Source: a virus. From it: 64,000 nt of DNA. The first letter of the stretch is position 1; the number at the start of each line of letters is the position of its first letter. The notes beneath the pieces are model-generated. The model did no database searches. It was not told the origin of the DNA and saw nothing but the letters and a program-made list of their open reading frames with translations. Location of the stretch: the IMG/VR virus record IMGVR_UViG_3300015203_000008, one strand, 5' to 3'. Below are positions 13,510 to 44,927 of the stretch, piece by piece. Both the position numbers and the translations under genes were made by a program.

Positions 13510-13512
13510 GGG

Positions 13513-14094
13513 CTATTGTTCCTTGCGGCTCGCTAGCGGCAGCGCATTGATTGCGATCTTCTCGCCATGCTTCGATTCACGTGTCCAATCCGCTTCGGTG
13601 GGGTTGCCTGGAACGTATCCGACAGTTTGACGCATCTCGATTGTCTGATCGTTGGCTTCAGCCGGTGGGAGGACGGGCGGCGGTTCTTTGTAATAAGACG
13701 AATGCCCGAGTTGGCTAGCGGCCAGAGCCTTGATGATCCCGCCGCACGAATCGACGTGCTTCAGGAGACGGTCTGACATTCTGTCACTGACGTTCAACCT
13801 GACCTTTTTAGCTCCGCGCTCAATCAACGCTCGGTTGTGGACTTCCAGTTGATTCAAGGCAGCCACCGATTGGTTGATGAAGTCGTAGCAGCGCATCTCG
13901 CATTCGTAGATCGCCTTTTCGAGGTTGGCTACGCGCTCAGCGCGCAGGTCTGGAATCTCAATCGGGGGGATGATGATCACCAGCGGCTTATGGTTCTGGT
14001 CGCGCTTATCGGAGCGGATGCGGTTGCGCGGCGGCTTCCCTTGGCCTCGTCTATGGGCGGCTGCGGCTATCGCACTTTTGGTTCTGGGGGACAT
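13513..14094 (-). CDS. Hypothetical protein, candidate terminase small subunit
   Basis: Lies directly upstream of terL; basic N-terminus and helical core; call by position only. Confidence 0.45.
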   Translation of the reverse strand: MSPRTKSAIAAAAHRRGQGKPPRNRIRSDKRDQNHKPLVIIIPPIEIPDLRAERVANLEKAIYECEMRCYDFINQSVAALNQLEVHNRALIERGAKKVRLNVSDRMSDRLLKHVDSCGGIIKALAASQLGHSSYYKEPPPVLPPAEANDQTIEMRQTVGYVPGNPTEADWTRESKHGEKIAINALPLASRKEQ

Positions 14095-17000
14095 CAGTTT
14101 CCTAGTTGGCCCAAGGTCCCGCCATACCCATTTACTTTGCCGGGCGGATTGGAATTGCCGGCTGGCTGTTGAGGTAAGCTCGGGTTCCCTCGAGGACTCG
14201 GTCCTTGGACTCCGGGGAAAGCTTCTGATACGGCGTCCCGGACTGCTTTGTAAGCTGAGGCTTTGACGGCATTGGGTTCCTTCCCGTTCGCGAGTTCTGA
14301 GGCTGCATGGTTCAGCGCGTCCGACACCGGACCTACCCCCGAACTGAGACGATTATATAACTCTTCGACCTGTGCCGCCTCTTGAGAAATTTTCTGACTC
14401 TCGCCAACGTTGATGACGTTGCCGCCGCGGGCTAGTTCTTCGGCGCGTCCTCCCTTCGCAACAAAACCGAATAGGCGTCGATCTTTGGCGAGTTGGTCTT
14501 TGATGTAGCTCGAGACTTCAGCTTTCTCGATCGCCAGATTGCGAGTCTGTTCCTGCGCGCCGAATAGAGATTCTTGCGTCGAGGTCTGCTGTCCGGCTTC
14601 GCGGACGAATCGGGCAAGCTCGGACACCGTTCCCTCGTTGACGGTCTTTCCGCGTTTCTCCGCTTCGCCGATCATTTTCAGAATAGACCACTGCTGCGCG
14701 GCGTCCGCCGTGGCTTCGCCGATTGCGATCGCGCGAGACACCGGCAAGTTTCCAGTGCTGACAAGGTGAAAGATTGGGTCATCCAATCGGGCGAGCGCCA
14801 TACCATCCTGCGCGACAGCCTCCCGCAGACGGATGCCTTTCGCTCTGAGATCATCCGCGGTGAGTCCTGAGTCTCGAAAGAACTTGGCGGCGTCGACGGG
14901 CGTGCCCTGTCCTTCGGCGATGTTCTGAAGCGCGCCGGTTGAGCGTGCATCTGCTGCATTCGCCGCGGGAATGCTGTTGACGTTGACCGAATCTGCTCCC
15001 GTGCGCTTGGCGAGGTCTAGGCGGTGATGCCCGTTAACGACGTAGGTCTTGCCGTCCGCCGGATCGGTCCACACGGACACCACGCCTGCGAGTTCTGGGT
15101 TGTACTTGCTCACGTCCTTCAGCTTGTTTGAAACACCCGCCTCACCGGTTCCGGCTTTGTACTGGAATCGATCTGGGTCAGCCGAGATATCCTGAACTCG
15201 CATCTTGCCGACGCTGCCTGGCGGCGGAGGTTGGTTCGGCATCCCTTCGGGCACTGCGGCGGCCTGCGGCGGCGCGGCGGGGCCTTTCGGAACCTCTGGC
15301 AACTGCCCTAAAGCCTGCCCTTGGCTCGGAGGACCGCCAGACGTTGCTTGCGCCGGTCCACGAACCGCTGTGGGCGCTTGAATCGGCGCTGGGGCTTGCG
15401 TTGGGCCATTTGGCACCTCTGGGGCTAGGATTGGTGAAGCTGGAGCATTAGGATTGCCCTGTGTGGGAGCACGCGGCGAAGGAGGTGGCAATTGCCCAAG
15501 GGGTTGCGGTGGGGCCGCGCCGGGACCGGCTGGCCCTCCGCTGGCGATTTCCCCGACTCCTTTAGCCGCTGGTTGCGGTCCTGTAGGCTTCGGACGTGCC
15601 GCAGCTTTGGCCGATGCTTCAAGGCGAGCTATCTGGCCCGGGCGAAGGTTTTCAATCCCAGCATCAAGTAGCTTGGCCGTGGCCGGATCCGCGCGAAGTC
15701 GTTCCTTCACGCCGGGAATTTCCAAAGCCTTAGCGAGTGCCGATGGGACTTGGGGTGCTGGTTCCGATGGGGCTGAGACTTCACCGCGCGCTGTGAGGCG
15801 CACAGGTTCACCGTCACGCAGCACCCATGATTCAACCTGCTTCGTTTCAGGATTCTCGAAACGATGGATGGTTTCTTCGCCCTGCTTGAAAAGCTCCTTG
15901 GGAGGCGTCCAACCTTCGGGCGTGAGTTTTCCGGGCCGCGTAGCATCGTAGGCGATCTTATTCTCAAGGGTGGCATTCGGCTGGGCGGCAGGCGCGCCAC
16001 GATCACCGAGGCGCTGCGCTCCGGGCAACCGAGAATCAGGGGGTGGCGTTGACGGCGTTGCGGTGCGTTGCGGTGCCCCCGCCGGATCATAGATACGGTT
16101 GGGCGATCCCGATGGAGCGACCGGGGAATCGAGCATCGGCTCATCAGCGTGATAGACGCCGCGCTCTGGCGTCCCGAACTGGCCCAATCGCTGGCGGCCG
16201 GCGAGGGTTTGCTCTGCTGTTGGCTGTGGCGATCCGGCAGGCTCAGGAGCGTGCAATGGCTGTTCTTCCGCAGGAGTGCTCGCCAGCGTGCGCGCTTCCT
16301 CCTCAGTCAATCCACGGCGCATGTAGTCGAGTACTCGTCCGGCGAAGTCGCGCGCTCCGGTGGTGGGGCTACCTTCCGCGCCACGAATGAGGCGTCCGCT
16401 CGCGTCTTGTGACCACGTTGGATGGTCAATGGAATCGGCTGTGGCGGCTGCCTTGCGGCGTTCCCAGAAAAAGGGGTCAGAAGGCGAACCATCAGCGTTG
16501 CGCATGGCCGCCGGAACATTGGGCGCTTCGGCGCGCGCGGGTTGATCTGCAAATCGGCCGGCGGTGGGGGTATTAGCGACTTCGGGACGGGCGCCGATCG
16601 GCCCGGCATTGACCTCGCGGGAGAATCGGGCGTCGGGGAGGGTGGTAACTGGAACTTCCGCGCGGGACGGCAGGCTCACATTCTGGCCAGGCGCTTGTGG
16701 GCGGCGTCCCGTCGCTACAGGTCCGACGGTTCCGGGGTTCCGCAGGTTGGCAGCAACTTCTGGCGGAATTTCAGGCCGCGTCGCGGGTCCAATTTCGATC
16801 TTGCGTAGGGCATTGGCGAGCGTGATGTCCGGGTGGGTCATCTCCGGCGGGAAGAACTTACTTCCAACAACGTCTCCGAGGGCAGCACCGACCGGCGCGG
16901 CTACGGCTGAACCGACAACGCCCAACGGAGATCCAAGAGCAGCGCCAGCAGCAGCTCCCGCTCCAGTCGCGACATTCCTACCTACCGAACGCTCTGTCGA

Positions 17001-18530
17001 TGGAGTTGGGTTCGTCACATCCGCGCGGTCGGCGGCGTGCGCCGCGGCGCGGCGAAGTGCCGCGGTCCTCCCTGCGCGCTGATCCGACGCTAGAAATTGA
17101 TCGCCTTGACCATCTCCGAGGTGCTGATCGATGAGATCTTTAATGCCCCCTTGGAGGTGAGAGGAAACATCGTTGGCGATCGTGGCGAGGTTTGAATCGT
17201 GCATCCCAACAGGATTATCGTGCATCGGCTGAGCGATGGCGTTGAGGCGCGCTTTCAATGGGAATGCGTCACCGGCGGAAATCTCGCCTGTCTTCAACGC
17301 CTTTCGCACAATGGCGGCCGATTCTGGTTCTGCAAGGCTGGTAGTCGTATCTCCGAATAGATGCTCCAATTGGGGCCGAACCGCTTCAATCGAAATCGGC
17401 TCGTTCCCAACTTGGTTGACCCAGTTCGCCTTTGTCAATTCGTAGTGTTGGGCGGCTTGATCCGCGAGAGCATCGTGGATGCGGCGGGTTGCGCCCGCTT
17501 CCTGCCCAGGTTCCCCGATCACATCTTTGAGCGTACCGTCTGCGGCCATCTGGTTGACAGCTTCGCGTAGCGTCGGCGCAGCGTCGGCCTTGAGAGCCTT
17601 CGCGAGCTTTTCCTTGCCGAGAACGCCGACAGCTTCGTTGGTTCCGGCTAGCGTAGCGGTCTTGGTAGCTTCAGCGGCCTTTGCGGTTTTCGCGGCGGTA
17701 CGCGCTGCGCGGGCGTCTCCTACTGTGTCCGCGACAGCGCGCGCGCCGGCGGCGACCTTTCCGGGCAACTCGCTGATGGGTCCGTTAGCAGCGGCAACGG
17801 GACTGAGCGCACCACCCGCTCCAAATGCGACCCCGCCAGCAGCTTGAAGGTTTCTTTGTAAGGTATCGGCATCCGTTTCTCCCGGACGCGCCCCGCCAAA
17901 TTCTGTCGCGGCATTAGCCGCGAAGGTTGCACCTGCCACTGGACCCGCCACCTTCATGGCCGTGCCGACCTTTGGGGCCGCATTGATGAGTTTCCCGGTA
18001 GTGGACGCCAGTTCCGCCGCGCGCGCCGCCGCTGCGGTGTTGCCAGCAGCAGCAGCAACTTTACCCGCCCGTGCCATGTTCGCCGCTTGAAGCGCTTTGC
18101 CAGCACCTACTCCCGTCGCCATCAGAGCAACCGAAGCCGGGGAAGTGAAGCTGCTGCCAACGCCTGCGGTGTCTTGGAGTGAACCACGGAAAAACTCGCG
18201 CATCGCAGCGTGCGACGGCGTTTCCCCTTCGTAGGGAGACATCTCTTTGTCGAAGTCTTCGGAGCTCATCCCGGTCGCCGCATTGACGAGATGCTCCTTG
18301 GTGATTAGGCCGCGATTCATCCAGTCCCAAGCGCTTTTCAGGAGTCCGGGCTTCTCTTGCTCCTTCGGTTTGTCTGGCGCGGTCTGCCCGGTCGCGCCAG
18401 CCTTTTTCGCCAGCGCGTCGTAATCAACAGCCGGAGCTGGCGCAAGAGTCGAACCGGTAGCCCCCGCTTTCTTGGCGAGAGCATCGTAGTCAATAGTCTG
18501 CGGATCGGTTTCCAGTTCGGCTACCGGCAT
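14094..18530 (-). CDS. Large internal virion/ejection protein with a C-terminal ParB-like domain
   Basis: 1478 aa, Ala/Pro/Gly-rich; duplicated N-terminal DYDALAKKAGATG; DPDRFQYK...YVVNGHHRL ParB-like motif. Confidence 0.72.
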   Translation of the reverse strand: MPVAELETDPQTIDYDALAKKAGATGSTLAPAPAVDYDALAKKAGATGQTAPDKPKEQEKPGLLKSAWDWMNRGLITKEHLVNAATGMSSEDFDKEMSPYEGETPSHAAMREFFRGSLQDTAGVGSSFTSPASVALMATGVGAGKALQAANMARAGKVAAAAGNTAAAARAAELASTTGKLINAAPKVGTAMKVAGPVAGATFAANAATEFGGARPGETDADTLQRNLQAAGGVAFGAGGALSPVAAANGPISELPGKVAAGARAVADTVGDARAARTAAKTAKAAEATKTATLAGTNEAVGVLGKEKLAKALKADAAPTLREAVNQMAADGTLKDVIGEPGQEAGATRRIHDALADQAAQHYELTKANWVNQVGNEPISIEAVRPQLEHLFGDTTTSLAEPESAAIVRKALKTGEISAGDAFPLKARLNAIAQPMHDNPVGMHDSNLATIANDVSSHLQGGIKDLIDQHLGDGQGDQFLASDQRAGRTAALRRAAAHAADRADVTNPTPSTERSVGRNVATGAGAAAGAALGSPLGVVGSAVAAPVGAALGDVVGSKFFPPEMTHPDITLANALRKIEIGPATRPEIPPEVAANLRNPGTVGPVATGRRPQAPGQNVSLPSRAEVPVTTLPDARFSREVNAGPIGARPEVANTPTAGRFADQPARAEAPNVPAAMRNADGSPSDPFFWERRKAAATADSIDHPTWSQDASGRLIRGAEGSPTTGARDFAGRVLDYMRRGLTEEEARTLASTPAEEQPLHAPEPAGSPQPTAEQTLAGRQRLGQFGTPERGVYHADEPMLDSPVAPSGSPNRIYDPAGAPQRTATPSTPPPDSRLPGAQRLGDRGAPAAQPNATLENKIAYDATRPGKLTPEGWTPPKELFKQGEETIHRFENPETKQVESWVLRDGEPVRLTARGEVSAPSEPAPQVPSALAKALEIPGVKERLRADPATAKLLDAGIENLRPGQIARLEASAKAAARPKPTGPQPAAKGVGEIASGGPAGPGAAPPQPLGQLPPPSPRAPTQGNPNAPASPILAPEVPNGPTQAPAPIQAPTAVRGPAQATSGGPPSQGQALGQLPEVPKGPAAPPQAAAVPEGMPNQPPPPGSVGKMRVQDISADPDRFQYKAGTGEAGVSNKLKDVSKYNPELAGVVSVWTDPADGKTYVVNGHHRLDLAKRTGADSVNVNSIPAANAADARSTGALQNIAEGQGTPVDAAKFFRDSGLTADDLRAKGIRLREAVAQDGMALARLDDPIFHLVSTGNLPVSRAIAIGEATADAAQQWSILKMIGEAEKRGKTVNEGTVSELARFVREAGQQTSTQESLFGAQEQTRNLAIEKAEVSSYIKDQLAKDRRLFGFVAKGGRAEELARGGNVINVGESQKISQEAAQVEELYNRLSSGVGPVSDALNHAASELANGKEPNAVKASAYKAVRDAVSEAFPGVQGPSPRGNPSLPQQPAGNSNPPGKVNGYGGTLGQLGN

Positions 18531-26670: not shown

Positions 26671-27615
26671 TTACTCGGAGGCTTCCGGCTTCTTCTTGCC
26701 TTTGACTTTGGGCCCGGCCAATTCCCCACCGCCGGCCAAAACCATCGCTTCGGCAACCTCGGCTTCGAAGCCGGGCTGCACGTTCTGGCACGTCGCGCAG
26801 ATGCGCGCGCGTTGCAGGATGTTCGAAGCGCAGAAGAAGCATTCCTTGAACTGAGCGTTGGCCGATCGCGTCGCGCTGGCCCATTCGGGCATCACGCGGA
26901 TTTCTCCGATGTCGAACAGATGCTTCGCCGCGGCTACGTGCGAATCGGAGATCACTTTGGGGTTGCCCTCGCTCTTGCGCCACTGGCTTTCCGCTTCGCG
27001 ATAGCAAAAGAGCATGTAGGGCTTCATCCGCTTGCCAGCGTCAGCGAGCTTTTCCTTGATGCGTTCCAGCGGCGCCGTGTATTGCTCGTCGGAGTTCTGG
27101 ATGAACCGCTGCCAGCAGACGCCGCCGAACGGCCCATACTCCTTGTCGAAGTCCGCTCCGATGTCGGAAGGCGCTACGGCCTTGATGATGTACTTGGCGT
27201 CGCCCTGGTCGCCCGGGTCCATCGGCGTGTCGATGCCAGCGCCGCGCACGATCAGTAAGGCCACTTTGCCAGCGTATTCGCGGGTGAACTCCGGAAGCCC
27301 CAACTGATCCAGACTCGCGCGTCCTTCAGGCGAATCCGGAGCGGGAATCTCCTTCAGTCCGAGATACCCCATTTCACGGCGGATTGGCCACGGGAGCATG
27401 TTGAAGATGACGACGGGCTGCACGCCAACGCGCGTCACTGAGTTCAACTCTTCCATCGCGTTCTGATTGCGCCGTTTGTCGGCGGCTCCGCCCATGACCA
27501 AGTTCCCCTTACCATCACGGCGAATATCGAACGCCTCTCCGAAACCATCGCGATCGGCAGCGACAGCCCCATTCACTGGCGCGTCAAGAACTGGGGACAA
27601 AGTAGCAGTGTTCAT
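26671..27615 (-). CDS. Hypothetical protein with a C-terminal double zinc ribbon
   Basis: KECFFCAS...ARICATCQ. Confidence 0.65.
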   Translation of the reverse strand: MNTATLSPVLDAPVNGAVAADRDGFGEAFDIRRDGKGNLVMGGAADKRRNQNAMEELNSVTRVGVQPVVIFNMLPWPIRREMGYLGLKEIPAPDSPEGRASLDQLGLPEFTREYAGKVALLIVRGAGIDTPMDPGDQGDAKYIIKAVAPSDIGADFDKEYGPFGGVCWQRFIQNSDEQYTAPLERIKEKLADAGKRMKPYMLFCYREAESQWRKSEGNPKVISDSHVAAAKHLFDIGEIRVMPEWASATRSANAQFKECFFCASNILQRARICATCQNVQPGFEAEVAEAMVLAGGGELAGPKVKGKKKPEASE

Positions 27616-29321
27616 AAACTTCCTTTCGTTTTCCGTCGAAAGACGGTCAATTCTGTATATCGGGTGTCGAGATCGTAGTCATCAAGGATCGCTCGACCGA
27701 ACGTCACTCCGTAGAACGGTGCATCCCAACGGCAAAAAATCAACGTATCGAACCGCATGTCCTGCCAACGCTGAATGATAGATTCCGTCGTCTCTTTCGG
27801 AAATGCGCTAACCGGGTCCCACCAGATCGGCAGCCCAACCGGCGATTTCCTGCCGGTGGCTGCGTACATCCATTCCAGGCGCGGCCCATAAAAGACGTTG
27901 GGAGCATCCATATCGATGCACAGTCCATTTTTATTGCAGAACTTCGCCGGTCCAGCAACTGCGGCCAACTCAGCTTGTTCGATGGTCCTTTTCAGCGTCC
28001 CGCTGCCGTAGAAACCTTTGAAAAAGGCTGTGGGAGGCTGCACCTCGTCTTGGTTGTACTCATGGAAGCGATGTTCGCCGATCGTTGCCACACGATACCG
28101 GGACAGTCCCATGTAGAATCCGCAGATAATCAGCACAGCGAGGGCCATTGCGGAGATTCTCTTCGCAATGCCAGATCCGCAACTGACGGCAACCGCAACC
28201 ACGAGCAGCGCGCAGTCAACCTCTTTCATTTCCCCGTTCGTTGTCATTGCTAGCAGCGCGATCGCCGCGCACGTCCACGAGAGCCAACGCGCCGACCTCC
28301 GAGCCGCGATCAAAGCCGCGAGAAACAGGCTCACCTGAACGAATGCCCGCAAGTTGTCATCTAATCCATTGATCCGCCAACCGATCCAGGGATCTGAATA
28401 GCCGCGCCCAGTGGCAATCATCAGATAATCGGCGAAGAGATTTTCCACGGAGATTCCCTGAAGAGCAAGAGCGGAGAATGCGAGCAACCCGGCGCCAAGA
28501 GTTTCTACTACGACACTCCGGTCAACCCGAAGTACGAAGATAAAGCCCGCGAGAAGCACTAGCGCTGCGGTATTCGGTTTGCCGAGGGCTAATATCGCCA
28601 TCGACGCACAGAAGGACAGCCGCACACTCCAACTCGGAGGTGACGAACGTGCCCATGCGAAACAAGACAGCGCAAAGATGGTCGCTATGACTGCCGTGCT
28701 GTTGTTGTACCACCAGAACGACAGCGACACCATCGATCCAACCTCGATCGCGAGCGCCGCCAGTGCGGGATACTCACAGCCTGATTTCTTGAATAGCCAG
28801 CTCAGCCAATAGAACGTCCCGCAGGCGAATGCGGCGGCGAGAATCTGGAGAGCATACCAATGAACTCCAAACACTCGAAAAGCTCCCGCCGCCGGCAGGA
28901 AGAATAACGGCGGCAAGCTGCAAAAGAAATCTCGGTATGGAATATGCCCTTGAAGCACTCGGTACGCCGATTCTACCGTCACTGCGAAGTCATAGCCGCC
29001 GAACTGGTGCATACCAAACCAATAGACGCAAGTGGCCACCGCAGGGCCTAGGGCCCACTTTTCCTTTTCGATCCACGGAGAGACATACGACGCGGAAACT
29101 ATCGCGATGACGATTAGAACCGCTGTCACGATTTCCCAATGAAGCAACTGGGGGACGCGCGCCGATTTGCCAAACACGACGCAGTTGACGCCCAACCATA
29201 AAGCTTTGGGAAGCGGAGCCACCTCGCGGCATTCTTTGATATTGAAGGCAATGACTGCATCGGCGATCCGCACCACTGACCATCCAATGGCACAGATCGC
29301 CGCTAGCGCAGGAAGACGCAT
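27612..29321 (-). CDS. Polytopic membrane protein, GT-C (ArnT/PMT-2-like) glycosyltransferase
   Basis: About 12-14 hydrophobic segments; YD...SAYRVLQGHIPYRDFFCSLPPL loop typical of GT-C; soluble C-terminal domain. Confidence 0.65.
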   Translation of the reverse strand: MRLPALAAICAIGWSVVRIADAVIAFNIKECREVAPLPKALWLGVNCVVFGKSARVPQLLHWEIVTAVLIVIAIVSASYVSPWIEKEKWALGPAVATCVYWFGMHQFGGYDFAVTVESAYRVLQGHIPYRDFFCSLPPLFFLPAAGAFRVFGVHWYALQILAAAFACGTFYWLSWLFKKSGCEYPALAALAIEVGSMVSLSFWWYNNSTAVIATIFALSCFAWARSSPPSWSVRLSFCASMAILALGKPNTAALVLLAGFIFVLRVDRSVVVETLGAGLLAFSALALQGISVENLFADYLMIATGRGYSDPWIGWRINGLDDNLRAFVQVSLFLAALIAARRSARWLSWTCAAIALLAMTTNGEMKEVDCALLVVAVAVSCGSGIAKRISAMALAVLIICGFYMGLSRYRVATIGEHRFHEYNQDEVQPPTAFFKGFYGSGTLKRTIEQAELAAVAGPAKFCNKNGLCIDMDAPNVFYGPRLEWMYAATGRKSPVGLPIWWDPVSAFPKETTESIIQRWQDMRFDTLIFCRWDAPFYGVTFGRAILDDYDLDTRYTELTVFRRKTKGSL

Positions 29322-29322
29322 G

Positions 29323-30429
29323 CTAGTTGACGTATTTGATTGATTGAACACGCTGGGCCATTCGGCTCGTCGCCACCGATGCGCTAAACATCGTCTGCAA
29401 AGCAATCGTGTTCGCCGCCGTCAGATCGACCGTTTGAGTCGTGACGTTGGTGTCATCGTAGTAGGCCGATGTAGCCGTGGTTCCGCTCACCGCCGATGCG
29501 AGATCGGCCGTGCAGTGAGATTCCAGCGTTCCGGTCGCGCCAGTGCTTGCCGTGATCAGGTCGGCGTGGAACTTCCACGGGTAGTTAGAGGCTGCCGTTG
29601 CCATGCCTGCGGTGGTGATGTCGCAGACTGGGACCGTCCCGACAAGCAGATAGAACCGAACGGTTGCCGTACCTGCGGTGCCAGCCGTCGCATACCCGAC
29701 GCCATCGTAAGACAGCTTGCGACCAACGAAGTTCTGCTGACCCGCAACCTGCGCCTGGGTCATCAAACTTGTCGGCGTCGTAATCGGATTGACCAGCAAG
29801 ACCGTCGCTAGATTTCCGCTCGGATTCTGGATGTAATTGGTCCCGTTCCACACGAATTCAACCGGGTATCCAGAGTGGTTCCAGATCAGCTTCGTGTCCA
29901 CAAAGCCCGCTGCCCCGGTCATTGTGGTTAATGAACCAGGGAATCCCGAATGGACGATGACGTTTCCGCCAGAACCACCGTGCGCGTAGTTGATGGCCTC
30001 TTGCAGCCCATAAGTTCCGGATACGATCCGTGAACCGGAGCCGTGAACGTAGGTGAACGATGCCGTGAAAGTGCAACTCGACGGCTGTTGGTTCGGACCT
30101 TGGCTACACGCCGACCCGACCGCAGTCGGCGTCACCGTTTCGCTGTTGGCGTCCAAGATGGTGATCGGGGCATTGGTCGAAAGCGGACTCAACGACAGGC
30201 CATCGCCCAGTGTCACCGTTCCACTCGCAACCGAGAGCGTTGAGGAACCGGTGGCATTTACGCCCGTCACTTGCAACTGCCAAGCATTGAAGGACGGTAC
30301 GTAAACGATGTCGTTACCCGACTCACGGGAGGGCAACCGGGAACTCGTGGGACCTTGCGCGATCACCACGGCTACAATCAAGAGGCAGGCCAATGCCCCC
30401 AGGCTTAACGCCTTTGAATTGAAGTTCAT
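29323..30429 (-). CDS. Signal-peptide-bearing Thr/Ser/Gly-rich structural-like protein
   Basis: MNFNSKALSLGALACLLIVAVVIA|Q; paired Cys; beta-sandwich-like C-terminus. Confidence 0.7.
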   Translation of the reverse strand: MNFNSKALSLGALACLLIVAVVIAQGPTSSRLPSRESGNDIVYVPSFNAWQLQVTGVNATGSSTLSVASGTVTLGDGLSLSPLSTNAPITILDANSETVTPTAVGSACSQGPNQQPSSCTFTASFTYVHGSGSRIVSGTYGLQEAINYAHGGSGGNVIVHSGFPGSLTTMTGAAGFVDTKLIWNHSGYPVEFVWNGTNYIQNPSGNLATVLLVNPITTPTSLMTQAQVAGQQNFVGRKLSYDGVGYATAGTAGTATVRFYLLVGTVPVCDITTAGMATAASNYPWKFHADLITASTGATGTLESHCTADLASAVSGTTATSAYYDDTNVTTQTVDLTAANTIALQTMFSASVATSRMAQRVQSIKYVN

Positions 30430-30445: not shown

Positions 30446-31297
30446 TTAAAATGCGTGATTTCGATAACCCAAGGCTTCTAGTTCGCGGCTGGCTTGCGCC
30501 TGCCCTCCTAGGCTCTTGGCGTCGAATGGGTTGTAGGTGTTGGCGAGCGCCTCGCGAGTCGCCGCCATTCGCAGTTCTGACTTTTGGACATTTTCGGCTT
30601 CTGCTTGACTGACGGCCAGCGCGATGCGTGCGTTGGGATTCTCAGGAACCTCGGCTAGACCTTGCTCGATCATGCCGACGATCCGAAGAACCCAATCCTC
30701 GCTGAGTTGCGTCGGCGAGAAGCTAAACCCGGTTGTGACCCAATCCCCGCGATGTGGATATGATCCCAAAGCAGGAACGGTTTTGCTCTGTTTGGTGACC
30801 ATCGTTCCTCCAAGTTCCTGCGGCATCTCCCAAAGCTCAGGAGTGCCCCACGCTTCGGCTCCTCGCCAGCGTTCAAGAACCCAGCGACCACGCAACTCCC
30901 AGTAGATCGGGATCGCGCGGACCTCCACAACGCTCCGAATTGGAACATTGCCGCCCCACTGCCGGCCACCTTCGGCAACCGAAGATACCCGATCTGCAGA
31001 GCAGCAACGCGGACACGGCTTAGGCTTCGTCTTTCCAACGATCATGGCCCCGCCGCATACCTTGCAACCGTCAACATCCGCGAAGGATACCTGACGCCCG
31101 ACGGGGTTGCGTTCGGCTACCGAAAGGTTTTCGTTCCAATCGAGCCATTCTCCGCCGGATTCGACAAATCGACCTTCTGCCCAAACGAGGCGATACAGAG
31201 GCTCCCCGTAAGGATTGGAAGGATGCCCCAGCGCGCGAACAATGTGCGCTGGGGCATCCAAGGCGTTGACACCGGTATACAGCGTGCGGCCATCCAT
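30446..31297 (-). CDS. Protein downstream of the capsid gene, with a zinc-finger insert
   Basis: Start MDGRTLY 5 nt after the MCP stop; YRLVW motif; CKVC...CPRC. Confidence 0.65.
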   Translation of the reverse strand: MDGRTLYTGVNALDAPAHIVRALGHPSNPYGEPLYRLVWAEGRFVESGGEWLDWNENLSVAERNPVGRQVSFADVDGCKVCGGAMIVGKTKPKPCPRCCSADRVSSVAEGGRQWGGNVPIRSVVEVRAIPIYWELRGRWVLERWRGAEAWGTPELWEMPQELGGTMVTKQSKTVPALGSYPHRGDWVTTGFSFSPTQLSEDWVLRIVGMIEQGLAEVPENPNARIALAVSQAEAENVQKSELRMAATREALANTYNPFDAKSLGGQAQASRELEALGYRNHAF

Positions 31298-31302
31298 GAT
31301 GT

Positions 31303-32568
31303 TTAGACCCAGCCAGTCGGAACGGCCAGCGAAGTGATGGCACCGATCGCCAGCGGGTTGTCCACGAAGAACTGGATACCGCAGGCGAAGTAGAAGAGGC
31401 TCGAGGATTCCGGCGCGCCGTCCGGGGCGTATGCCGAGAACAGCCACGTGCCGTCCTTCAAGGTGTAGTAGTCAACCGCTTTCCACTCCGCACGGCCCCA
31501 GGTATCGAGGTTGAGCAGGTCGACGCGGGTGATGTCCTGGTAGATGTGGCACTTCACCGGGATTCCGAGAATCTGGCCTTCTTCATCGTCGGTGATCAGA
31601 TCGATGTTCTCGCGGCCCGCGCCCTTTTGCTTCATGATGCGGGTGATGGCCTGTTCGATCTCCGCGTACGCGGCGAACTGGGCTTCATGCATCAGCCAGC
31701 GAAGCGCCTTCTGCTTTTTGGCAGTTTCGACGCCAACCGCCTGCTTGACCGCTCCCCACAATTGGCGGAAGTGGCCCAATGCTAGCGCCTGGCTCCCCGC
31801 ATTGAAGATGTTGGCCTGCATGTAGTTGTTTCCACGGCTGATGCCCATGACCGTGCCCGTGGAGGTGTTCGTGGCGAAATACGGGATGCCGTAGATGCCG
31901 ACCGGGTTCGCGCCGCTCAAACCAGCCGCGACAATGACGTCGGTGCCAGTCGTTCCAGCCGGAACAGCATCGACCAAGACGGTCTGTGTCTGCCCGAGGC
32001 GCGCATTGACATCGACCACGTTGAAGGATCCGCGGTTGGTAGTCAACGCCGAGTTGTAAATCTGGTACGGCGCCGTCTTGCGGATCAGGCGCGCACCGAA
32101 CGGCGTGCTCGTCATCGTGATCGTGTTGCCCGACACCGAGGACACCGTACCGTGAACGCCGTTGCCGGCGGTCAGCAGTTGGCGATCGATGGCGTTCCGG
32201 AACTCTTCGATTCCGTATGCGCTTTCCGCTTCGAAAGCCTTCTTGACGGCCTTCTGGTCCGAGTCCGTCGCGAACTCTTGCAGAGCCGTGGTTTCGACCG
32301 CGAGCAGCATGCCCAGCGGGGTGATCTGGAACCGATCGTAAATCGAGGAGGTACCGCGGCCCAGACCTTGACCGTCAAACCCGTTGTACCGGAACGCCGC
32401 CGGCGGGCTAACACGCAAAGGTCCGTTGACCGCGCGCGTCGATGATTTCACAACGTCACCGCGGGTCATGATGAGCTGATACACCATGTCCCCTTCGTTC
32501 ATCAGGTTCGGAACGATTTTGCGGTATTCTTCCTTCTGCACACCGAGGTAATCGGCATTGGATGGCAT
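31303..32568 (-). CDS. Major capsid protein (HK97 fold)
   Basis: 421 aa after the scaffold; FRNAIDRQLL.G.G, GIYGIP and final GAITSL features; strong RBS. Confidence 0.8.
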   Translation of the reverse strand: MPSNADYLGVQKEEYRKIVPNLMNEGDMVYQLIMTRGDVVKSSTRAVNGPLRVSPPAAFRYNGFDGQGLGRGTSSIYDRFQITPLGMLLAVETTALQEFATDSDQKAVKKAFEAESAYGIEEFRNAIDRQLLTAGNGVHGTVSSVSGNTITMTSTPFGARLIRKTAPYQIYNSALTTNRGSFNVVDVNARLGQTQTVLVDAVPAGTTGTDVIVAAGLSGANPVGIYGIPYFATNTSTGTVMGISRGNNYMQANIFNAGSQALALGHFRQLWGAVKQAVGVETAKKQKALRWLMHEAQFAAYAEIEQAITRIMKQKGAGRENIDLITDDEEGQILGIPVKCHIYQDITRVDLLNLDTWGRAEWKAVDYYTLKDGTWLFSAYAPDGAPESSSLFYFACGIQFFVDNPLAIGAITSLAVPTGWV

Positions 32569-37458: not shown

Positions 37459-39261
37459 TTATCGCACCAGCAACACTGGCAAGTTGCCGACAATCCCCGT
37501 CGATGAAATCAAGATGCCGATCACCTGCCCCATTCCTGAAGGATATGAGGTAGTCGCCGGCACTCCGCTGTCCATGCACCAGTCAGGATTCGCTGGGTTA
37601 GAGGACGTGACGACCCAGTTCCCAACCGTGTATCCGCCACTAAACGAGCAGTACGCTACGCCTTCACGTGCGATTTTTACGTTCCCGCTTGTCCCCGCGT
37701 TCGCTACTGCGATCCCAAGAACACCGTGCGCTTGCGAAGCCGACGCCGCCGTAGCAGTGCAAACCGAAGAAGTGCAGGTCAGCGTGACCAGTTTATTCAG
37801 GTGCGGCGCCGCAGCTCCATTGTTGGGAAGCTCGAAGACTCCCGCCTGATAAGCGCCAAGGTCCAAAGCTATCGTGCTCGAAGATCCGCCCATCGGCGCG
37901 TATCCACCCAAGGGCGCGGAACCGAGCACAGGAGAGTTCGATAAGACTACCGAGCCCCTGCCCGTCGAAGCCGTGTATGTCGGAGTAAGCGCGTTCGTGC
38001 CGTCGCCGGTTGACGTATAGAACTTCGGTTGCGTGGTCGTGTTCGCGGGCATATTCCTCCAGACGAATTTCCCGCCACCGACCGGGCCGAGGAACAAGGT
38101 GTCGTATGCCGCCCCCGGAATCACGTCGGTAGACAATAGGCGTTGGTTCCTGCCGTTGGCGTTGGCAACGAAATAAGACCCGCTCGGATCTAGCCATAGC
38201 TCCCCGCCCATCGTGGACGTTGGCGCGTTTTCCGCGACCGGGATGCGGAGCGAAGGCCGCGAAGTCGTAGCAGCCGGGAAAAGCATAGACAGGCCGAATG
38301 TCACATTCGCTCCGTCTGTGACGTAGAAGAGTTCATCGTGCGCGGCGTTCGTGACCATGAACGTCCCGCCAGGATTCAAGCTAAACGAAGACGACCCGCC
38401 AGATACCCCTGTCGTCGTGTGAACAGTCAGCGCCGCATCGCCGTAGTTGTGTCCTTGCGATTTCGCCGTCACGCTAAATGAATCCACCGCGAACCCAACC
38501 TGCATCGTGTTGTCCAGTTCGCAAGAAATCCAAGTCATAAAGCGAAGCGTGTTGTCGTTGACTCCCGCGCCGCCTTGAATCTGCCCTCCGACTTGGTTTG
38601 TCCAAAGCATGTAGTTCTCTCTGGCTGCGGCGCTCAGAACGAACGTGGTGCTATCTGCATCCGCTATCGGCGCGGAAAGCGTCAAGTGCTGGCTGTCGAT
38701 AACGTCTGCGATCTTAGAAGCAATTGGAACGCGGTTTCCGGCGATCACAGGCTGTGCGTTTACCCATGCTCCGGTTATGTCGAAAACACCTCCCGAGATC
38801 CACGTTACATCCGTTCCAGAGACAGACACGACTGACGAAACGTATTGATTGTTGCACCCGCTCGTCCAGTAATGAGGTTCATTGACAATAGTGATGCCGC
38901 CCGTCAAAGTATTCGGTTGCCACCCGAAGCTCGCTACGTTGTCGCTCTGCGGATCGACGCCTTGCGATGTATTGTACTGTCCGTTTGTAGCGAGGTGATT
39001 CCCGAACATCGCGACTCCGAACTCTCCGTTGAGAGGGTATTCGCTGGGCCGAACCAGCCAAGGAATCTGCGCGCTGATGTTGCCTGTCGCCCCGGGCGCT
39101 CCGACGAAACGAAGAGTTCCAGTTACGGGATCGACAACCACCTTCGCTGATCCTACGAAGCCGCCCGATCCGTCCGCAACTTGTACCGCGTTTTGCGGGC
39201 CGGTAGATTGCGCGTAAACGAGAGTCGCGAAAAATAGGATAGCAAGCGCGGGTTTTTTCAT
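37459..39261 (-). CDS. Signal-peptide-bearing fibre protein with a C-terminal DUF2190/capsid-cement-like domain
   Basis: MKKPALAILFFATLVYA|Q; C-terminal GVLGIAVANAGTSGNVKIAREGVA...GNWVV...QVIGI. Confidence 0.65.
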   Translation of the reverse strand: MKKPALAILFFATLVYAQSTGPQNAVQVADGSGGFVGSAKVVVDPVTGTLRFVGAPGATGNISAQIPWLVRPSEYPLNGEFGVAMFGNHLATNGQYNTSQGVDPQSDNVASFGWQPNTLTGGITIVNEPHYWTSGCNNQYVSSVVSVSGTDVTWISGGVFDITGAWVNAQPVIAGNRVPIASKIADVIDSQHLTLSAPIADADSTTFVLSAAARENYMLWTNQVGGQIQGGAGVNDNTLRFMTWISCELDNTMQVGFAVDSFSVTAKSQGHNYGDAALTVHTTTGVSGGSSSFSLNPGGTFMVTNAAHDELFYVTDGANVTFGLSMLFPAATTSRPSLRIPVAENAPTSTMGGELWLDPSGSYFVANANGRNQRLLSTDVIPGAAYDTLFLGPVGGGKFVWRNMPANTTTQPKFYTSTGDGTNALTPTYTASTGRGSVVLSNSPVLGSAPLGGYAPMGGSSSTIALDLGAYQAGVFELPNNGAAAPHLNKLVTLTCTSSVCTATAASASQAHGVLGIAVANAGTSGNVKIAREGVAYCSFSGGYTVGNWVVTSSNPANPDWCMDSGVPATTSYPSGMGQVIGILISSTGIVGNLPVLLVR

Positions 39262-39704
39262 TTGGCTGCTGGTTGAGATGTTTGCTGCTGCTGTATTACT
39301 TGCGCCTTGACTGCGGCTGAAGGTTTCGGCACCGCACCATCCGCCGTGGTTGAATCGACTTGCTGCGTCCGAATCTTATCCAAAATTTGCCGCAGCCGTG
39401 CGTCTGTCAGGGCGTCCTGGTATAAGCCTTTTACGATGCCGTCCAAGGTTGCTGAAGTTCCAGTGGCGTTGTATTCGCTGATGATGCGTTGCCCTTCATC
39501 TCGGGTAAATCCGCCGTGCCGCGCGCGGCGCGTAAGTCCCGATTCTTGCACCGTAACCAAAACGTCGATTCCTTCACCTTCGCGGCTATCTGTGATATCA
39601 ACCGAAAAGGCTGGTCCGGGCGCTGCTCCGCGCAGAAGGACGCCCATAGCGAGTACGCCAGCTATTGCCAACGCGGCTACACCATACGACATCTTCTTTA
39701 GCAT
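39258..39704 (-). CDS. Signal-peptide/TM-anchored protein
   Basis: MLKKMSYGVAALAIAGVLAMGVLLRGA. Confidence 0.7.
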   Translation of the reverse strand: MLKKMSYGVAALAIAGVLAMGVLLRGAAPGPAFSVDITDSREGEGIDVLVTVQESGLTRRARHGGFTRDEGQRIISEYNATGTSATLDGIVKGLYQDALTDARLRQILDKIRTQQVDSTTADGAVPKPSAAVKAQVIQQQQTSQPAAK

Positions 39705-40465
39705 GTTGTGGCACTCCCCGCGCAGATTTCAGACCCAACTTGGCCGCCGTAAACAACGGCAACAACCATCTGACCCGCGCTGAACGTCCCGGTCGTTGTG
39801 AACGTAATCGCGGTTCCGGTACCCAAATATGTCTTTGTGTTGAACGTGCCAACGTTCTTGCCCTGCGTGATGTTAGCGGTTACCGTGCTGGCTAAGTACT
39901 GCACCGAGGTTGTATCGTTGCTTTGCACCGTTACGGCTGTGCCGCCAACCGCGCCCTGCCCGGTCATGCAATAGAAGTTGATGAAGACGATCTGGACCCC
40001 GTTACCGTTGCCTGACAGATTGCGGGATGTAGCCAGAGTATAGGTTCCCGCCGCGCCGCCCGATGTCAAATCGAGCGTAAATTCCTTCATGCCGCCGTGC
40101 CAATTACCCGATGTCGGACCAGCAGACTGGAACGGAGACAATCCCGGCTTGAGAGCCAATACAGGACTGCTAGCGTATAAAGAGCTTGCGTCCCAACGCC
40201 TCCCAGTGCTTCGATAAGAAGCCGCGTCCAGTTCGGCTTGCGGCGTCAAGTTCAAGGCTCCACCTGCTTGCCGCACGAAATCATTGACGATGCCGGAAGG
40301 GAGACCCGCGTAGTCGTTTTCGCTTACTCGCGTGTCTTGGACCACCGTCATAATCGTAGGCATGTAGTGGCGCAAGATTTGTGGCAAAAACTGGTGAGCG
40401 AGAGAAAACACGCTGGCCAGAATCAACACCGCGCCCAGCATTCCAGACCAAAGTTGTTTAATCAT
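39698..40465 (-). CDS. Signal-peptide-bearing beta-rich protein
   Basis: MIKQLWSGMLGAVLILASVFSLA; C-domain paralogous to 40465-40929. Confidence 0.7.
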   Translation of the reverse strand: MIKQLWSGMLGAVLILASVFSLAHQFLPQILRHYMPTIMTVVQDTRVSENDYAGLPSGIVNDFVRQAGGALNLTPQAELDAASYRSTGRRWDASSLYASSPVLALKPGLSPFQSAGPTSGNWHGGMKEFTLDLTSGGAAGTYTLATSRNLSGNGNGVQIVFINFYCMTGQGAVGGTAVTVQSNDTTSVQYLASTVTANITQGKNVGTFNTKTYLGTGTAITFTTTGTFSAGQMVVAVVYGGQVGSEICAGSATTC

Positions 40466-40929
40466 TAAGAAAGGAGTCCTCCGGTAGCGGCAGGCGAATA
40501 CTTACAAGTCGCCTGAATCGCGCCCGCCGTGCCGTTTGTACCGACGATGCTCAACTGAATATGCTTGCCCGAAGGCAGATACGTCGGAGTATTGTAGGTT
40601 GTCAGAGGCTTGCCGCCAGTAAGCGCCGCTACCACAACAGACGCCAGCATGACAGTGGGAGTGGTGTCGTCCGTCTGGACAGTGACAGATGTCAACCCCG
40701 TGACCGTGGTTGTTACCTCAAAGGTGCAGTATTCCACCACCACGGCTGCGGTGCTTGCCGTAAAAATGGTGTAGGTTCCGACGTTCTGGTTTGTGGACGT
40801 GCTGCCGTTAGCTATGGCGGTTTGGCCGGGAAGAGTTGCTATCGAGAAGTTGTCAGCCTTTGGGCGAACAACAACCGCAGCGAGGATGGCTGTCAGGACT
40901 AAGAGAGATAGCTTTTGTCTGTTTGTCAT
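40465..40929 (-). CDS. Signal-peptide-bearing beta-rich protein
   Basis: MTNRQKLSLLVLTAILAAVVVRPKA|D; two Cys. Confidence 0.72.
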   Translation of the reverse strand: MTNRQKLSLLVLTAILAAVVVRPKADNFSIATLPGQTAIANGSTSTNQNVGTYTIFTASTAAVVVEYCTFEVTTTVTGLTSVTVQTDDTTPTVMLASVVVAALTGGKPLTTYNTPTYLPSGKHIQLSIVGTNGTAGAIQATCKYSPAATGGLLS

Positions 40930-40931
40930 GA

Positions 40932-42857
40932 CTAATTCACGTTATACCCGGAAACCGAAACCGACTGAATGAGATTCGCCAGCGACGCTGACCATTCCAA
41001 TGTCATGGCCGTATTCGTAGTACCGGGCAGGTTCAATCCGCAAACGCTGAACGGAGAAATATTCTGCCCTGTGGCCGCGAGCACTACAGTTTGGTACGTC
41101 CAGATGATCGTGCCCGCGCCTGTCGCTCCGTCACGAAGATTGACGGTAAGCGCCGTTGCTACGGGCGCGGATGTAGACGCCGCCGAGAACGCGATGCAAT
41201 CCGCAACGTGCCGCACCGCCGATTCTGCCGCAATTGACGCCGTAGCTTGTGACCCCGCCGCAGGATTTGATATTACGGAAAATCGCGAACCTTTTTCCGT
41301 GAAGATCGCTCCCGCTTCGTTGCGAGCCGTCAACGTCGTGGCAGTCGGCATATTGGCGAGCGTAACGTTCGCCATCTGGTCGCTACCAATCACTACGCGA
41401 GGCGATCCGTTATTGGAAGCGCCAGTCCCACCAGGGACCTGCCCGCCTGTGCTTGCAAGTGTGTTGATGTTGATGTTTGTGGAATTTGCGCCGCTTGACC
41501 CTTGCGGAACCGATTGACCGTTGCTGCCCATCACCATATTCACTGGTTGCAGCGCGGTGGTCAACAGGATCGCAGTAGTTCCGGTAACGGCAGTAGGCCG
41601 CAGCCTGAATCCTGTGGTGCCGAGAGGCAGGTAGAATCGGTAGATACCCGATGTGGTGATATTGGCGGTGTTGTCCGACGACTGGCCGCCTGCGTTGTTC
41701 AAGATGTCGTATCGGAAATTGTTGGCGGCTACCGTCCAGTTAAATGGGGCCGAACTCGCTGTCGCCGCGACGCCGCTGAAATTGTAATCAAAAGCGATTT
41801 CGGGCACCAGCGTATTGCTTCCTCCAACGCTGATGTTAGCGGTCACCACGTTGTACCCCTGCACCGCGATCCACGCAGAATTAGCTTGCCCTGTCGCAGT
41901 TATGGAGTACGTCAAACCCTGGCCCGAAAGTATCGGATTGGGATTGCTGCCACCGTTGACAGTTCCTACTCCTGTCGCGCCTTGCGTCTGTAGTGCGGAT
42001 GTGCCGGTCTGACCGGCGTTGATCTTAACTAGCGTGTTACCGGAGCTATCGCACTGTACGTTGGAGTAATTTCCTGTGGTTATGGTCGTCGGCGAGTTGT
42101 TGAACATGCAGTAGCCGGAAGCGGCCAACAATCCATTACCTTGAACGTTCTGCCCAATCGCTGAATCTCGAACACGACTCCACGATGAGCCATTGTAGGC
42201 ATACAGCCAAACCGCCAATCCTCCCGGCGATGCGAGCGGAAACGTTTGATTTGTATTCGCGATAGAGTCCGCACCCGAACCAGTGACGCCGATTGGGAAG
42301 CCCCCGCTATTCGATGCCGGAACAACGCTGGTGGAATTGGCTGCTGTCTGCACGCCCTGCCCGTTCGCTGTTACTGCAACGCTCGCGGCAGGGGTTTGAT
42401 TACCGAGAGGTCCGGTGATCGTGGTAGTTCCACCTCCACCGCCGGAGCTCGTCGTCACATTCCATTGACTGAAGCATGCCGTCAACGCAACGCTACCCGA
42501 TCCGGTGAACGTTGCGTTGTTCACAAACCAGTATCTATAGGCTCCCGCCGCGCTCCCCATGTCAGTCGCCGTTGTCGCCGTGGACGCGCTGATCTTGGAG
42601 AATGTATTGCTCGCGCTCGCCGCAGCAGTCTGTCCAGCCACAATTGCCGCCGAGAAGGTTGTAACGGTACCAGTGGGAACGTAAGTCACCGTGACTGATA
42701 CCGTGCTCCAATTCTGAGGCGGATCGGTGGGCCAGATTTGAACGTAGGTCCCTGCCGTCGCAGTGCTCAGGGTTGTGGTCTTGCACACCTGGCTAGGCAA
42801 TTGGGCATGACTTACAGTCGCCGCGAGAAGCAGCGTCAAGAAGAGGAACTTTTTCAT
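40932..42857 (-). CDS. Signal-peptide-bearing multi-domain spike/fibre-like protein
   Basis: MKKFLFLTLLLAATVSHA|Q; Thr/Ser/Gly-rich; three Cys pairs. Confidence 0.72.
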   Translation of the reverse strand: MKKFLFLTLLLAATVSHAQLPSQVCKTTTLSTATAGTYVQIWPTDPPQNWSTVSVTVTYVPTGTVTTFSAAIVAGQTAAASASNTFSKISASTATTATDMGSAAGAYRYWFVNNATFTGSGSVALTACFSQWNVTTSSGGGGGTTTITGPLGNQTPAASVAVTANGQGVQTAANSTSVVPASNSGGFPIGVTGSGADSIANTNQTFPLASPGGLAVWLYAYNGSSWSRVRDSAIGQNVQGNGLLAASGYCMFNNSPTTITTGNYSNVQCDSSGNTLVKINAGQTGTSALQTQGATGVGTVNGGSNPNPILSGQGLTYSITATGQANSAWIAVQGYNVVTANISVGGSNTLVPEIAFDYNFSGVAATASSAPFNWTVAANNFRYDILNNAGGQSSDNTANITTSGIYRFYLPLGTTGFRLRPTAVTGTTAILLTTALQPVNMVMGSNGQSVPQGSSGANSTNININTLASTGGQVPGGTGASNNGSPRVVIGSDQMANVTLANMPTATTLTARNEAGAIFTEKGSRFSVISNPAAGSQATASIAAESAVRHVADCIAFSAASTSAPVATALTVNLRDGATGAGTIIWTYQTVVLAATGQNISPFSVCGLNLPGTTNTAMTLEWSASLANLIQSVSVSGYNVN

Positions 42858-42864
42858 GGATTAT

Positions 42865-43281
42865 CTACTCCGAGATGAGCGGTGTACAGGTACCGGCGTC
42901 CATTGAGTTGACGCGGAACTTGAGAAACTTGCAACCCTGCGTATTGATACCCACTTTGGCATCGCTGACGGGCAGATTGAACGGCTGGAGGCTCACGGCA
43001 TAGGTGACACCATCAATACTGCCCAGAAGCTCCCCGTCGAATGCCGTCACGCCAACCAGAGTCAACTGCACCGCCACGAACGTTCCTGGACGGCCGTGGT
43101 GAGTCGGTAGCGCGATCGCATCGCTCAGTTGAGGCACAACGATAGGCCCGGTGAAGACGGTGGGGTACGCCGCTTCATTTGAGTTTATCGGGCCAGCCTG
43201 GAACTGGAACCCATCGCAAAGGCTGTTGTGCGGCCCGTAGCCGATCGGACTTCCGGTCGAGATTGACGTGTTTAGAGGCAT
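42865..43281 (-). CDS. Small beta-sandwich structural-like protein without a signal peptide
   Basis: VAVQLTLVG...ELLGSIDGVTY...KFLKFRV strand pattern. Confidence 0.55.
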   Translation of the reverse strand: MPLNTSISTGSPIGYGPHNSLCDGFQFQAGPINSNEAAYPTVFTGPIVVPQLSDAIALPTHHGRPGTFVAVQLTLVGVTAFDGELLGSIDGVTYAVSLQPFNLPVSDAKVGINTQGCKFLKFRVNSMDAGTCTPLISE

Positions 43282-43282
43282 G

Positions 43283-43606: not shown

Positions 43607-43623
43607 ATTCGCCTTTATCCTTG

Positions 43624-43827: not shown

Positions 43828-43968
43828 TCGGGAAACCTTCCCTCTTTCATTAGTTTGAGAATCTTGCGTACCTGCGCGATCATGATCTCCGAGTAGTCCG
43901 GCTGCCACCATCGGCGAGTTTTCTGATAACTGATGGCGTTAAGCAGAAGCAGGAGAGAATACCCAATC

Positions 43969-44358: not shown

Positions 44359-44362
44359 CGTG

Positions 44363-44911: not shown

Positions 44912-44927
44912 TGCGATTCTCCTGTTT

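Follow-up and report, generated by a model that had tools for sequence, protein, structure and literature searches.

This study concerns a glycosyltransferase gene in a 64,000-nucleotide stretch of viral DNA (IMG/VR record IMGVR_UViG_3300015203_000008; the whole stretch is called the window below), the source of which is an uncultured soil phage of Acidobacteria. What is new here is a solitary, host-derived GT-C glycosyltransferase (protein P0002) that is coupled to a secreted protein inside the late structural operon. By analogy with characterised proteins of this type, P0002 is very probably a GT-C enzyme using a putative lipid-linked donor. The two genes and their junctions are arranged as follows:

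27612-29321, minus strand: GT-C fold membrane glycosyltransferase gene (P0002), 569 amino acids (aa) plus stop, as given by the open reading frame (ORF), its translation and the AlphaFold2 model
29323-30429, minus strand: gene of the co-inserted secreted 368-aa protein (P0159), with a Sec-type signal peptide and homologues in the same three phages
29319-29325, minus strand: TAG-C-ATG junction read from the sequence, comprising the stop of the secreted-protein gene, one base and the GT-C start
27612-27615, minus strand: ATGA, also read from the sequence, in which the GT-C stop overlaps the start codon of the 314-aa late gene that follows

The original prediction had called the protein a GT-C-type enzyme, to be refuted if no GT-C fold was recovered, and this claim is borne out by structure comparison. 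An AlphaFold2 model built with a 77-sequence alignment reached a predicted local distance difference test (pLDDT) value of 88.7 and a predicted template-modelling (pTM) score of 0.88, only residues 21-57 being poor. When this model was compared with the PDB by Foldseek, the top 37 rows were all GT-C enzymes, the best of them ArnT (5f15, E 5e-5). Alignments with VIA-align gave Z scores of 14-18 across 290-420 residues at a root-mean-square deviation (rmsd) of 4.1-5.3, with ALG3 among the matches; the values were 18.4 for yeast Pmt2 (326 residues aligned, rmsd 4.1), 17.6 for ArnT (405 residues in the range 83-566, rmsd 4.9) and 17.4 for human STT3A (414 residues, rmsd 4.8). The Z scores of Pmt2, ArnT and STT3 are tied and lie well over the helical-bundle background quoted for the tool. 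Among Swiss-Prot models, RgtC, RgtA and ArnT rank first as structural neighbours. Judged from its predicted structure, in which the GT-C fold is recovered clearly, the protein is a true GT-C enzyme, and its family goes unnamed in curated libraries.

Judged by curated thresholds, the protein does not belong by sequence to GT83, GT39 or PMT_2. Pfam, PHROGs and NCBIfam gave no match for P0002 (PMT, PMT_2 and YfhO included), and a PDB sequence search gave none with either the single sequence or the 77-member profile. PMT_2 (PF13231) is seen below threshold in 8 of the 77 relatives, its best score being 20 bits against a cutoff of 26.1 and the match being colinear over the whole profile; in addition, the ESM Atlas neighbours of the protein are clusters with PMT_2 in 14-34% of their members. 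Alignment of the family profile to E. coli ArnT by hhalign gave a probability of 0.1, a single-sequence target being too weak for this comparison. An exhaustive HMMER search collected 595 family representatives at E≤1e-3, with 135 at E≤1e-30, a number far above chance. Among the viral structures of BFVD there were zero matches at E≤0.001 and a few distant GT-C-like models, for example from an uncultured siphovirus and a Nitrosopumilus spindle-shaped virus.

The polytopic character claimed for the protein is reproduced by the model, which shows about 13 membrane helices plus a C-terminal soluble domain. Three parts can be delimited:

29058-29321, minus strand: N-terminal extension, residues 1-88, two hydrophobic helices before the GT-C core (pLDDT 37-75)
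28101-29057, minus strand: GT-C transmembrane core, residues 89-407, about 11 helices (model helices, Z 15-18)
27615-28100, minus strand: C-terminal soluble, predicted periplasmic alpha/beta domain, residues 408-569 (model and conservation)

The structural alignments to solved GT-C enzymes begin at residues 75-87. A loop map drawn on the model assigns to the core a first outer loop (109-154) and a long outer loop (288-319); the GT-C-like first loop quoted in the original prediction, GYDFAVTVESAYRVLQGHIPYRDFFCSLPPL, corresponds to residues 109-139. The C-terminal domain holds the family motif FYGPRLEWMYAA plus the invariant Tyr486, and since the alignments to ArnT, STT3 and AglB extend to residues 565-569, this soluble domain belongs to the common architecture.

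Conservation in the 77-member alignment points to the same core. D111, K248 and Y486 are invariant, while G103, G108, D131, W203, W204, N206, P249, N250, R306, R408, R410, the G479-P-R motif and others are at least 90% conserved; the phage copies keep all of the residues in both sets. Two codons deserve separate mention:

28989-28991, minus strand: codon (GAC) of the invariant Asp111, candidate catalytic base (77-member alignment, codon checked)
28578-28580, minus strand: codon of Lys248 in the K-P-N motif of a short outer loop, candidate lipid-phosphate binder (invariant in the 77 members)

Asp111 lies in the motif FGGYD, two residues past core helix 1 (residues 89-108). It is probably the equivalent of the catalytic Asp of class A GT-C enzymes, judging from the start points of the structural alignments and from the positions of this residue in ArnT and Pmt2, which we take to be D55 and D92, respectively. 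Lys248 is a candidate for binding the lipid phosphate of the donor. On the model, all conserved residues are located on loops that alternate with short Lys/Arg-bearing loops, i.e. on one face; the positive-inside count is weak and the loops are short. By homology with solved GT-C enzymes, this conserved face, the active site and the C-terminal domain would be periplasmic.

The 569-aa frame, for which the original prediction gave no strand, is real and belongs to the minus strand, with its ATG at 29321 and its TGA at 27612-27614; the plus strand of the same interval is interrupted by stops throughout. ATG 29321 is taken as the true start because residues 1-33 are conserved in a homologue of only 49% identity (from the related phage L001). 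A longer frame from TTG 29405 was rejected, as it would overlap the upstream gene by 83 nucleotides (nt) and is not conserved. Both junctions described earlier are found in the sequence: the gene starts 1 nt after a signal-peptide gene, whose product has a Sec-type N-terminus and 24% Ser+Thr, and it overlaps the following gene (26671-27615, minus strand) by ATGA. Inspection of the upstream junction revealed no Shine-Dalgarno sequence ahead of the GT-C ATG, whereas the secreted-protein gene has an AGGAG ribosome-binding site, which suggests translational coupling of the two. The GC content of the GT-C gene, overall and at third codon positions, is within the range of the adjoining late genes.

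The arrangement of the two genes was compared with that in related phages. The gene order in the window is portal, scaffold-like protein, capsid protein, a 283-aa protein, the secreted 368-aa protein, the GT-C protein and then proteins of 314, 236, 130 and 893 aa. The same order is found in the relative represented by L002, L003 and L077 (GT-C 84% identical) and in L001, where the identities to the window are 49% for the GT-C protein, 52% for the secreted protein, 52% for the capsid protein and 51% for the portal, so that both cassette proteins have diverged to about the same extent as the structural ones. L075, with a capsid protein 49% identical, has neither cassette gene, its order being capsid protein followed by proteins of 255, 314, 224 (adaptor-like), 125 and 842 aa; in L076 (capsid 44% identical) both genes are absent at the same site. 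The flanks of the site are:

30446-31297, minus strand: left flank, conserved gene of 283 aa that follows the capsid-protein gene (matched by tblastn in L075, L076 and L001)
26671-27615, minus strand: right flank, conserved 314-aa late gene, which in L075 directly follows the homologue of the 283-aa gene

The left-flank gene is thus kept in relatives that have no cassette. Its ORF, as listed from GTG 31447 (30446-31447), overlaps the capsid gene; most likely it starts at ATG 31297, giving 283 aa and matching the 283-aa gene of L002.

The GT-C gene and the secreted-protein gene are a two-gene insertion that is absent from the closest capsid relatives. In a tree of the capsid protein, for which 89 homologues were collected, the three carriers form one clade (support 100) and L075 falls in the sister group, so the simplest reading of these sequences would be a single gain followed by vertical descent. 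The placement in a head-tail operon that had been proposed for the enzyme therefore stands in one respect, since the late structural operon does contain the gene, with the capsid-protein region on one side and an adaptor-like gene on the other, and needs change in another, since this location is not ancestral, the cassette being absent at this site from both L075 and L076. The three intergenic distances at the cassette are 16, 1 and -4 nt, and its coding strand carries neither a promoter-like nor a terminator-like site (the promoter scan covering sigma-70-type sites only). With such tight gaps and no strand-matched site of either kind, the cassette is expressed as part of the late operon. A host gene or a contamination of the bin was considered as the source of the GT-C sequence and rejected, because the gene is syntenic among structural genes in three phages and its divergence is like theirs. 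A scan of JGI metagenomes yielded one more copy of the 84% relative, the remaining hits being cellular.

Two further observations were made on these relatives. L076, a phage without the cassette, encodes signal-peptide, Ser/Thr-rich proteins at 14705-17584 and 1385-4163; its 959-aa protein has the same N-domain as the secreted 368-aa protein (32% identity), and its 394-aa protein is related to the 1096-aa protein of the window at 52466-55756. Moreover, four capsid homologues (P0216, P0227, P0230 and P0235, 42-44% identical) are located on 111-294 kb contigs of metagenome-assembled genomes (MAGs) of Terriglobales, which makes it probable that phages related to this one reside in Terriglobales as integrated prophages.

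The origin of the enzyme is indicated by its cellular relatives, which were surveyed with one genome per species and are encoded at 66 loci. They belong mostly to Acidobacteriota and Verrucomicrobiota (33 and 15 of the 57 genome-borne rows of the tree), with a few in Planctomycetota, Myxococcota, Gemmatimonadota and Pseudomonadota. Maximum-likelihood analysis unites the GT-C proteins of the three phages in a single clade with a support of 100 in the Shimodaira-Hasegawa-like approximate likelihood ratio test (SH-aLRT), inside a Terriglobia/Bryobacteraceae/Acidobacteriaceae subclade (supports 92 and 88). The nesting of the phage clade in Acidobacteriota indicates that the gene was captured from the host lineage. 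The nearest cellular sister clade adjoins housekeeping genes (valyl-tRNA synthetase, quinolinate phosphoribosyltransferase, BirA and a major facilitator superfamily transporter), which is uninformative on function. Clustering of all genes within five of a GT-C relative, at 59 loci, gave the following recurrent neighbours:

NAD-dependent sugar epimerase/dehydratase: 23 of 59 loci, often several, upstream and on the same strand
NeuB-like protein: 10 of 59 loci
DegT-type aminotransferase: 10 of 59 loci
GT2 glycosyltransferase: 10 + 7 of 59 loci
thiamine pyrophosphate (TPP) enzyme: 9 of 59 loci
dehydroquinate (DHQ)-synthase-like protein: 6 of 59 loci

The 337-aa type of GT2 neighbour matches streptococcal PgfS (its best match) and E. 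coli ArnC from end to end and is therefore a polyprenyl-phosphate sugar synthase. Individual cellular contigs give the same gene picture, at times with extra GT-C genes (PMT_2, GT87) and UbiA. Three-component periplasmic glycosylation consists of a synthase, a flippase and a GT-C enzyme (PMC11127046), and by analogy the cellular GT-C loci follow this logic. At several of them (L023:3256-9661, L009, L017, L018 and L039), epimerase/dehydratase, DegT, TPP-dependent, NeuB-like, DHQ-synthase-like, FkbM methyltransferase and ArnC/PgfS-like GT2 genes recur; such clusters suggest that a branched or amino sugar of an unusual kind is made by a pathway of Acidobacteriota/Verrucomicrobiota.

None of this machinery accompanies the phage gene. 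Pfam scans of the 61 ORFs in the window found zero GT2, GtrA or sugar-nucleotide enzyme, which upholds the earlier statement that no GtrA/GtrB-like partner is visible. As donor-making and flippase genes are absent from the window, lipid-linked sugars of the host are needed, a requirement that had also been foreseen and gains support from these scans.

The partner of the enzyme, the secreted 368-aa protein, contains 24% Ser+Thr, and its signal peptide is also present in its two close homologues. In the model of this protein (pLDDT 78.9), a Thr/Pro-rich linker of low confidence (residues 205-219) separates a small beta-barrel domain at the N-terminus from a jelly-roll at the C-terminus. Foldseek of the model returned nothing at E≤1e-3. 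The fold matches of both domains are background-level, with Z≤8.0 for the N-domain, a 70-residue beta-barrel that occurs also in phage tail proteins, and Z≤7.3 for the jelly-roll/lectin-like C-domain; phage tail and tailspike insertion domains are among them, as are lectin or TNF-like jelly-rolls. An Atlas features score of 0.78 for the protein is a lead only. The N-domain is also found in other phage proteins, about 490-580 aa long, with a signal peptide in some and none in others: within the family P0163-P0197, some members start at the mature motif FAGxYxAxDYAYG and others add a Sec-type signal peptide to it. Prediction of a complex between the GT-C protein (residues 80-569) and the mature secreted protein (27-368) scored 0.00 in both runs, a result that counts neither way.

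The explanation that we favour can be outlined as follows. A GT-C class A enzyme (ArnT/PMT/STT3-like) would be active in the inner membrane of the host, with Asp111, Lys248 and Arg306 (the active site) and the C-terminal domain on the periplasmic side, and its gene would have been captured from an acidobacterial host lineage by the ancestor of a small phage clade. Late in infection, the secreted protein and the enzyme would be produced from one transcript, the enzyme being translated by reinitiation. We propose a host-made polyprenyl-phosphate-sugar as the donor because genes for a synthase and a flippase are both missing in the phage. On the periplasmic side, the sugar would most likely be moved to the co-encoded secreted protein as this emerges; further exported proteins of the phage would perhaps receive it too. 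A periplasm-facing enzyme could reach only exported proteins, and the case for the co-inserted one is that the two genes were gained together, are inherited together, are translationally coupled and are expressed late. GT-C enzymes glycosylating exported Ser/Thr-rich proteins encoded alongside them have been described for the Pgf cluster and for GtrB/PgtC2 (PMC12041528). We hold the explanation as a whole (active GT-C enzyme, capture from the host, cassette, host donor and co-encoded secreted protein as acceptor) tentatively, as plausible rather than probable. Its acceptor, which we infer, is also what we regard as the weakest step. With more doubt, one may suppose that a tailed phage exports some of its late proteins through the Sec system of the host and, in the periplasm, adds host lipid-linked sugars to one or more of them with a captured GT-C enzyme, and that the resulting glycoprotein, made outside the cytoplasm, joins the virion or acts alongside it after lysis; this joint reading is possible.

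Several observations weigh against the secreted protein as acceptor. Its Ser and Thr residues form no long tract and are diffuse, as in beta-rich fibres; the relatives of its N-domain in other phages have no GT-C-size gene visible alongside, and some lack the signal peptide. The cassette is present in only two independent lineages, and no substrate protein was found beside the cellular relatives (59 loci, five genes each side). On the model, the tied scores of Pmt2, ArnT and STT3 cannot separate a protein from a lipid or glycan acceptor. The remaining points speak at the same time for a modification of the host envelope: the phage GT-C systems for which descriptions were found (Gtr-type seroconversion) act on the host O-antigen (PMC11127046), the best Swiss-Prot structural neighbours (RgtA-D and ArnT) modify lipopolysaccharide (LPS) or lipid A, and many cellular family members reside in polysaccharide-type sugar clusters with ArnB/ArnC-like genes. 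If the enzyme serves this purpose, the sugar would be added to the lipid A, core or O-antigen of LPS, to exopolysaccharide or to a receptor surface protein, and this would block superinfection or prevent progeny from sticking to debris, the secreted neighbour being unrelated or a helper. Temperate relatives, as suggested by related capsid genes on the long Terriglobales MAG contigs, would fit such a role. However, neither GtrA/GtrB nor an integrase or repressor is among the 61 window ORFs scanned, and the burial of the gene in the late operon (gaps of 16, 1 and -4 nt, no strand-matched promoter-like or terminator-like site) makes its expression from a prophage unlikely. Late expression would presumably alter only newly made envelope molecules, and co-insertion with a secreted protein is not expected for an envelope-modifying enzyme. 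We consider the host envelope an unlikely target, albeit one to be taken seriously.

The enzyme might also be a general maturation factor, required by all Sec-exported, Ser/Thr-rich, fibre-like or decoration-like proteins of the phage. At least eight same-strand ORFs have signal-peptide-like N-termini and 14-27% Ser+Thr (six of them at least 19%), the GT-C gene is co-expressed with these exported-protein ORFs, and enzymes of this type can glycosylate many exported Ser/Thr-rich proteins (PMC12041528). Yet the cassette is limited to one small clade, and no family member was obtained from IMG/VR by a pattern scan (0 confirmed matches) or from GenBank phages by tblastn against 50,697 records. The original prediction would be refuted by relatives that keep the secreted proteins and lack the enzyme, and L076 is in part such a relative: it retains signal-peptide, Ser/Thr-rich proteins, one with the same N-domain, and no GT-C gene is seen in the 21 kb available, so that a general obligatory role in maturation is unlikely. 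The diffuse Ser/Thr content, as in ordinary beta-rich fibres, points in the same direction, and we regard this role as improbable. More improbable still is a non-catalytic function, either as a platform on which the secreted neighbour docks or is assembled at the membrane, comparable to PIGU in the glycosylphosphatidylinositol (GPI) transamidase, or in lysis timing. PIGU, a non-catalytic protein with the GT-C fold, is indeed among the structural matches (Z 14.2), and the family scans of the window did not turn up a recognisable endolysin; but the phage copies keep D111, D131, K248-P-N, R306, R408, R410 and Y486, family-invariant or near-invariant residues whose retention argues for retained chemistry, and the periplasmic domain is kept as well.

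Glycosylation of the co-encoded secreted protein, which we continue to prefer, can be compared with several known systems. ArnT (GT83) and the rhizobial RgtA-D are lipid A/core glycosyltransferases using undecaprenyl-phosphate sugars; the phage protein resembles them in its GT-C class A architecture, including the C-terminal periplasmic alpha/beta domain, and the cellular family members, like arn, have ArnB-like (DegT), ArnA-like (epimerase/dehydratase) and ArnC-like (GT2) neighbours. Unlike ArnT, it falls outside the corresponding NCBIfam/Pfam families, has an N-terminal extension of about 88 residues, and is phage-borne in a late structural operon with no arnBCADEF-like partners in the window. 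With PMT (GT39) it shares the best structural Z (Pmt2) and an acidic residue after the first core helix, but the alignment is confined to the membrane core (residues 82-426), a MIR domain is lacking, and Pfam PMT (PF02366) is not matched. In the Pgf system (PgfM1) and in streptococcal GtrB/PgtC2, the acceptors are exported Ser/Thr-rich proteins, and the Pgf substrates are encoded beside the enzymes (PMC12041528); the likeness extends to the GT2 neighbour of the cellular relatives, for which PgfS is the best match. The Gtr seroconversion cassettes (gtrA-gtrB-gtr[type]) of temperate Shigella/Salmonella phages likewise include a phage GT-C enzyme that works with a lipid-phosphate sugar on the periplasmic face (PMC11127046). 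In contrast to them, the gene described here lacks gtrA and gtrB as well as an integrase or att site nearby, is coupled inside a late operon and paired with a secreted protein, and belongs to an unrelated sequence family. Mycobacteriophages reportedly glycosylate their virions by cytoplasmic glycosyltransferases that are encoded in structural operons, are soluble and use nucleotide-sugar donors. The window is similar in that a glycosyltransferase gene among structural genes may act on virion proteins, and different in that the enzyme is a membrane GT-C protein whose active site is predicted to be periplasmic, so that only exported proteins would be reachable.

The rest of the window is consistent with its phage origin. 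It is phage DNA encoding a large terminase (11995-13509), a giant phrog_21 protein, a DnaB helicase, Mu Gam-like and Gp157 proteins and an HNH endonuclease; the portal and capsid-protein matches are weak, and family scans of the 61 ORFs did not find an integrase family. The large terminase is located at the downstream end of the long late strand (11995-18530, minus strand), after the 1478-aa phrog_21 protein, an order relative to the portal and capsid genes that is unusual for a packaging gene. Seven further late-strand ORFs (37459-44983 and 52466-55756, minus strand) have signal-peptide-like N-termini and 14-27% Ser+Thr, six of them being 1096, 206, 154, 255, 148 and 600 aa in size and the seventh, a weaker case, 641 aa. 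On the plus strand, the 1227-aa ORF at 8209-11892 combines a SNF2-type helicase (phrog_16) with LAGLIDADG_3 (residues 1014-1070) and, of an N6/N4 DNA methylase, keeps just the C-terminal end (residues 1146-1195); from its sequence, the ORF has the appearance of a helicase-methylase into which an intein or a homing endonuclease has been inserted.

Phage-encoded GT-C enzymes have been known only from three-gene cassettes, which change the O-antigen of the host in lysogens, whereas the one described here stands alone in a late structural operon. If the secreted protein is glycosylated, phage proteins would be matured in the periplasm with lipid-linked sugars of the host. It would be the first time that a phage enzyme is seen to glycosylate phage proteins in the periplasm from a lipid-linked donor; glycosylated phage parts would then arise by a new route, and phage signal peptides would have a further explanation. 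If, instead, the host envelope is altered late in infection, the known range of phage surface remodelling would be widened in the Acidobacteria, which are a major soil phylum and little studied. In both cases, the finding flags an uncharacterised GT-C family with recurrent unusual-sugar clusters in Acidobacteriota and Verrucomicrobiota.

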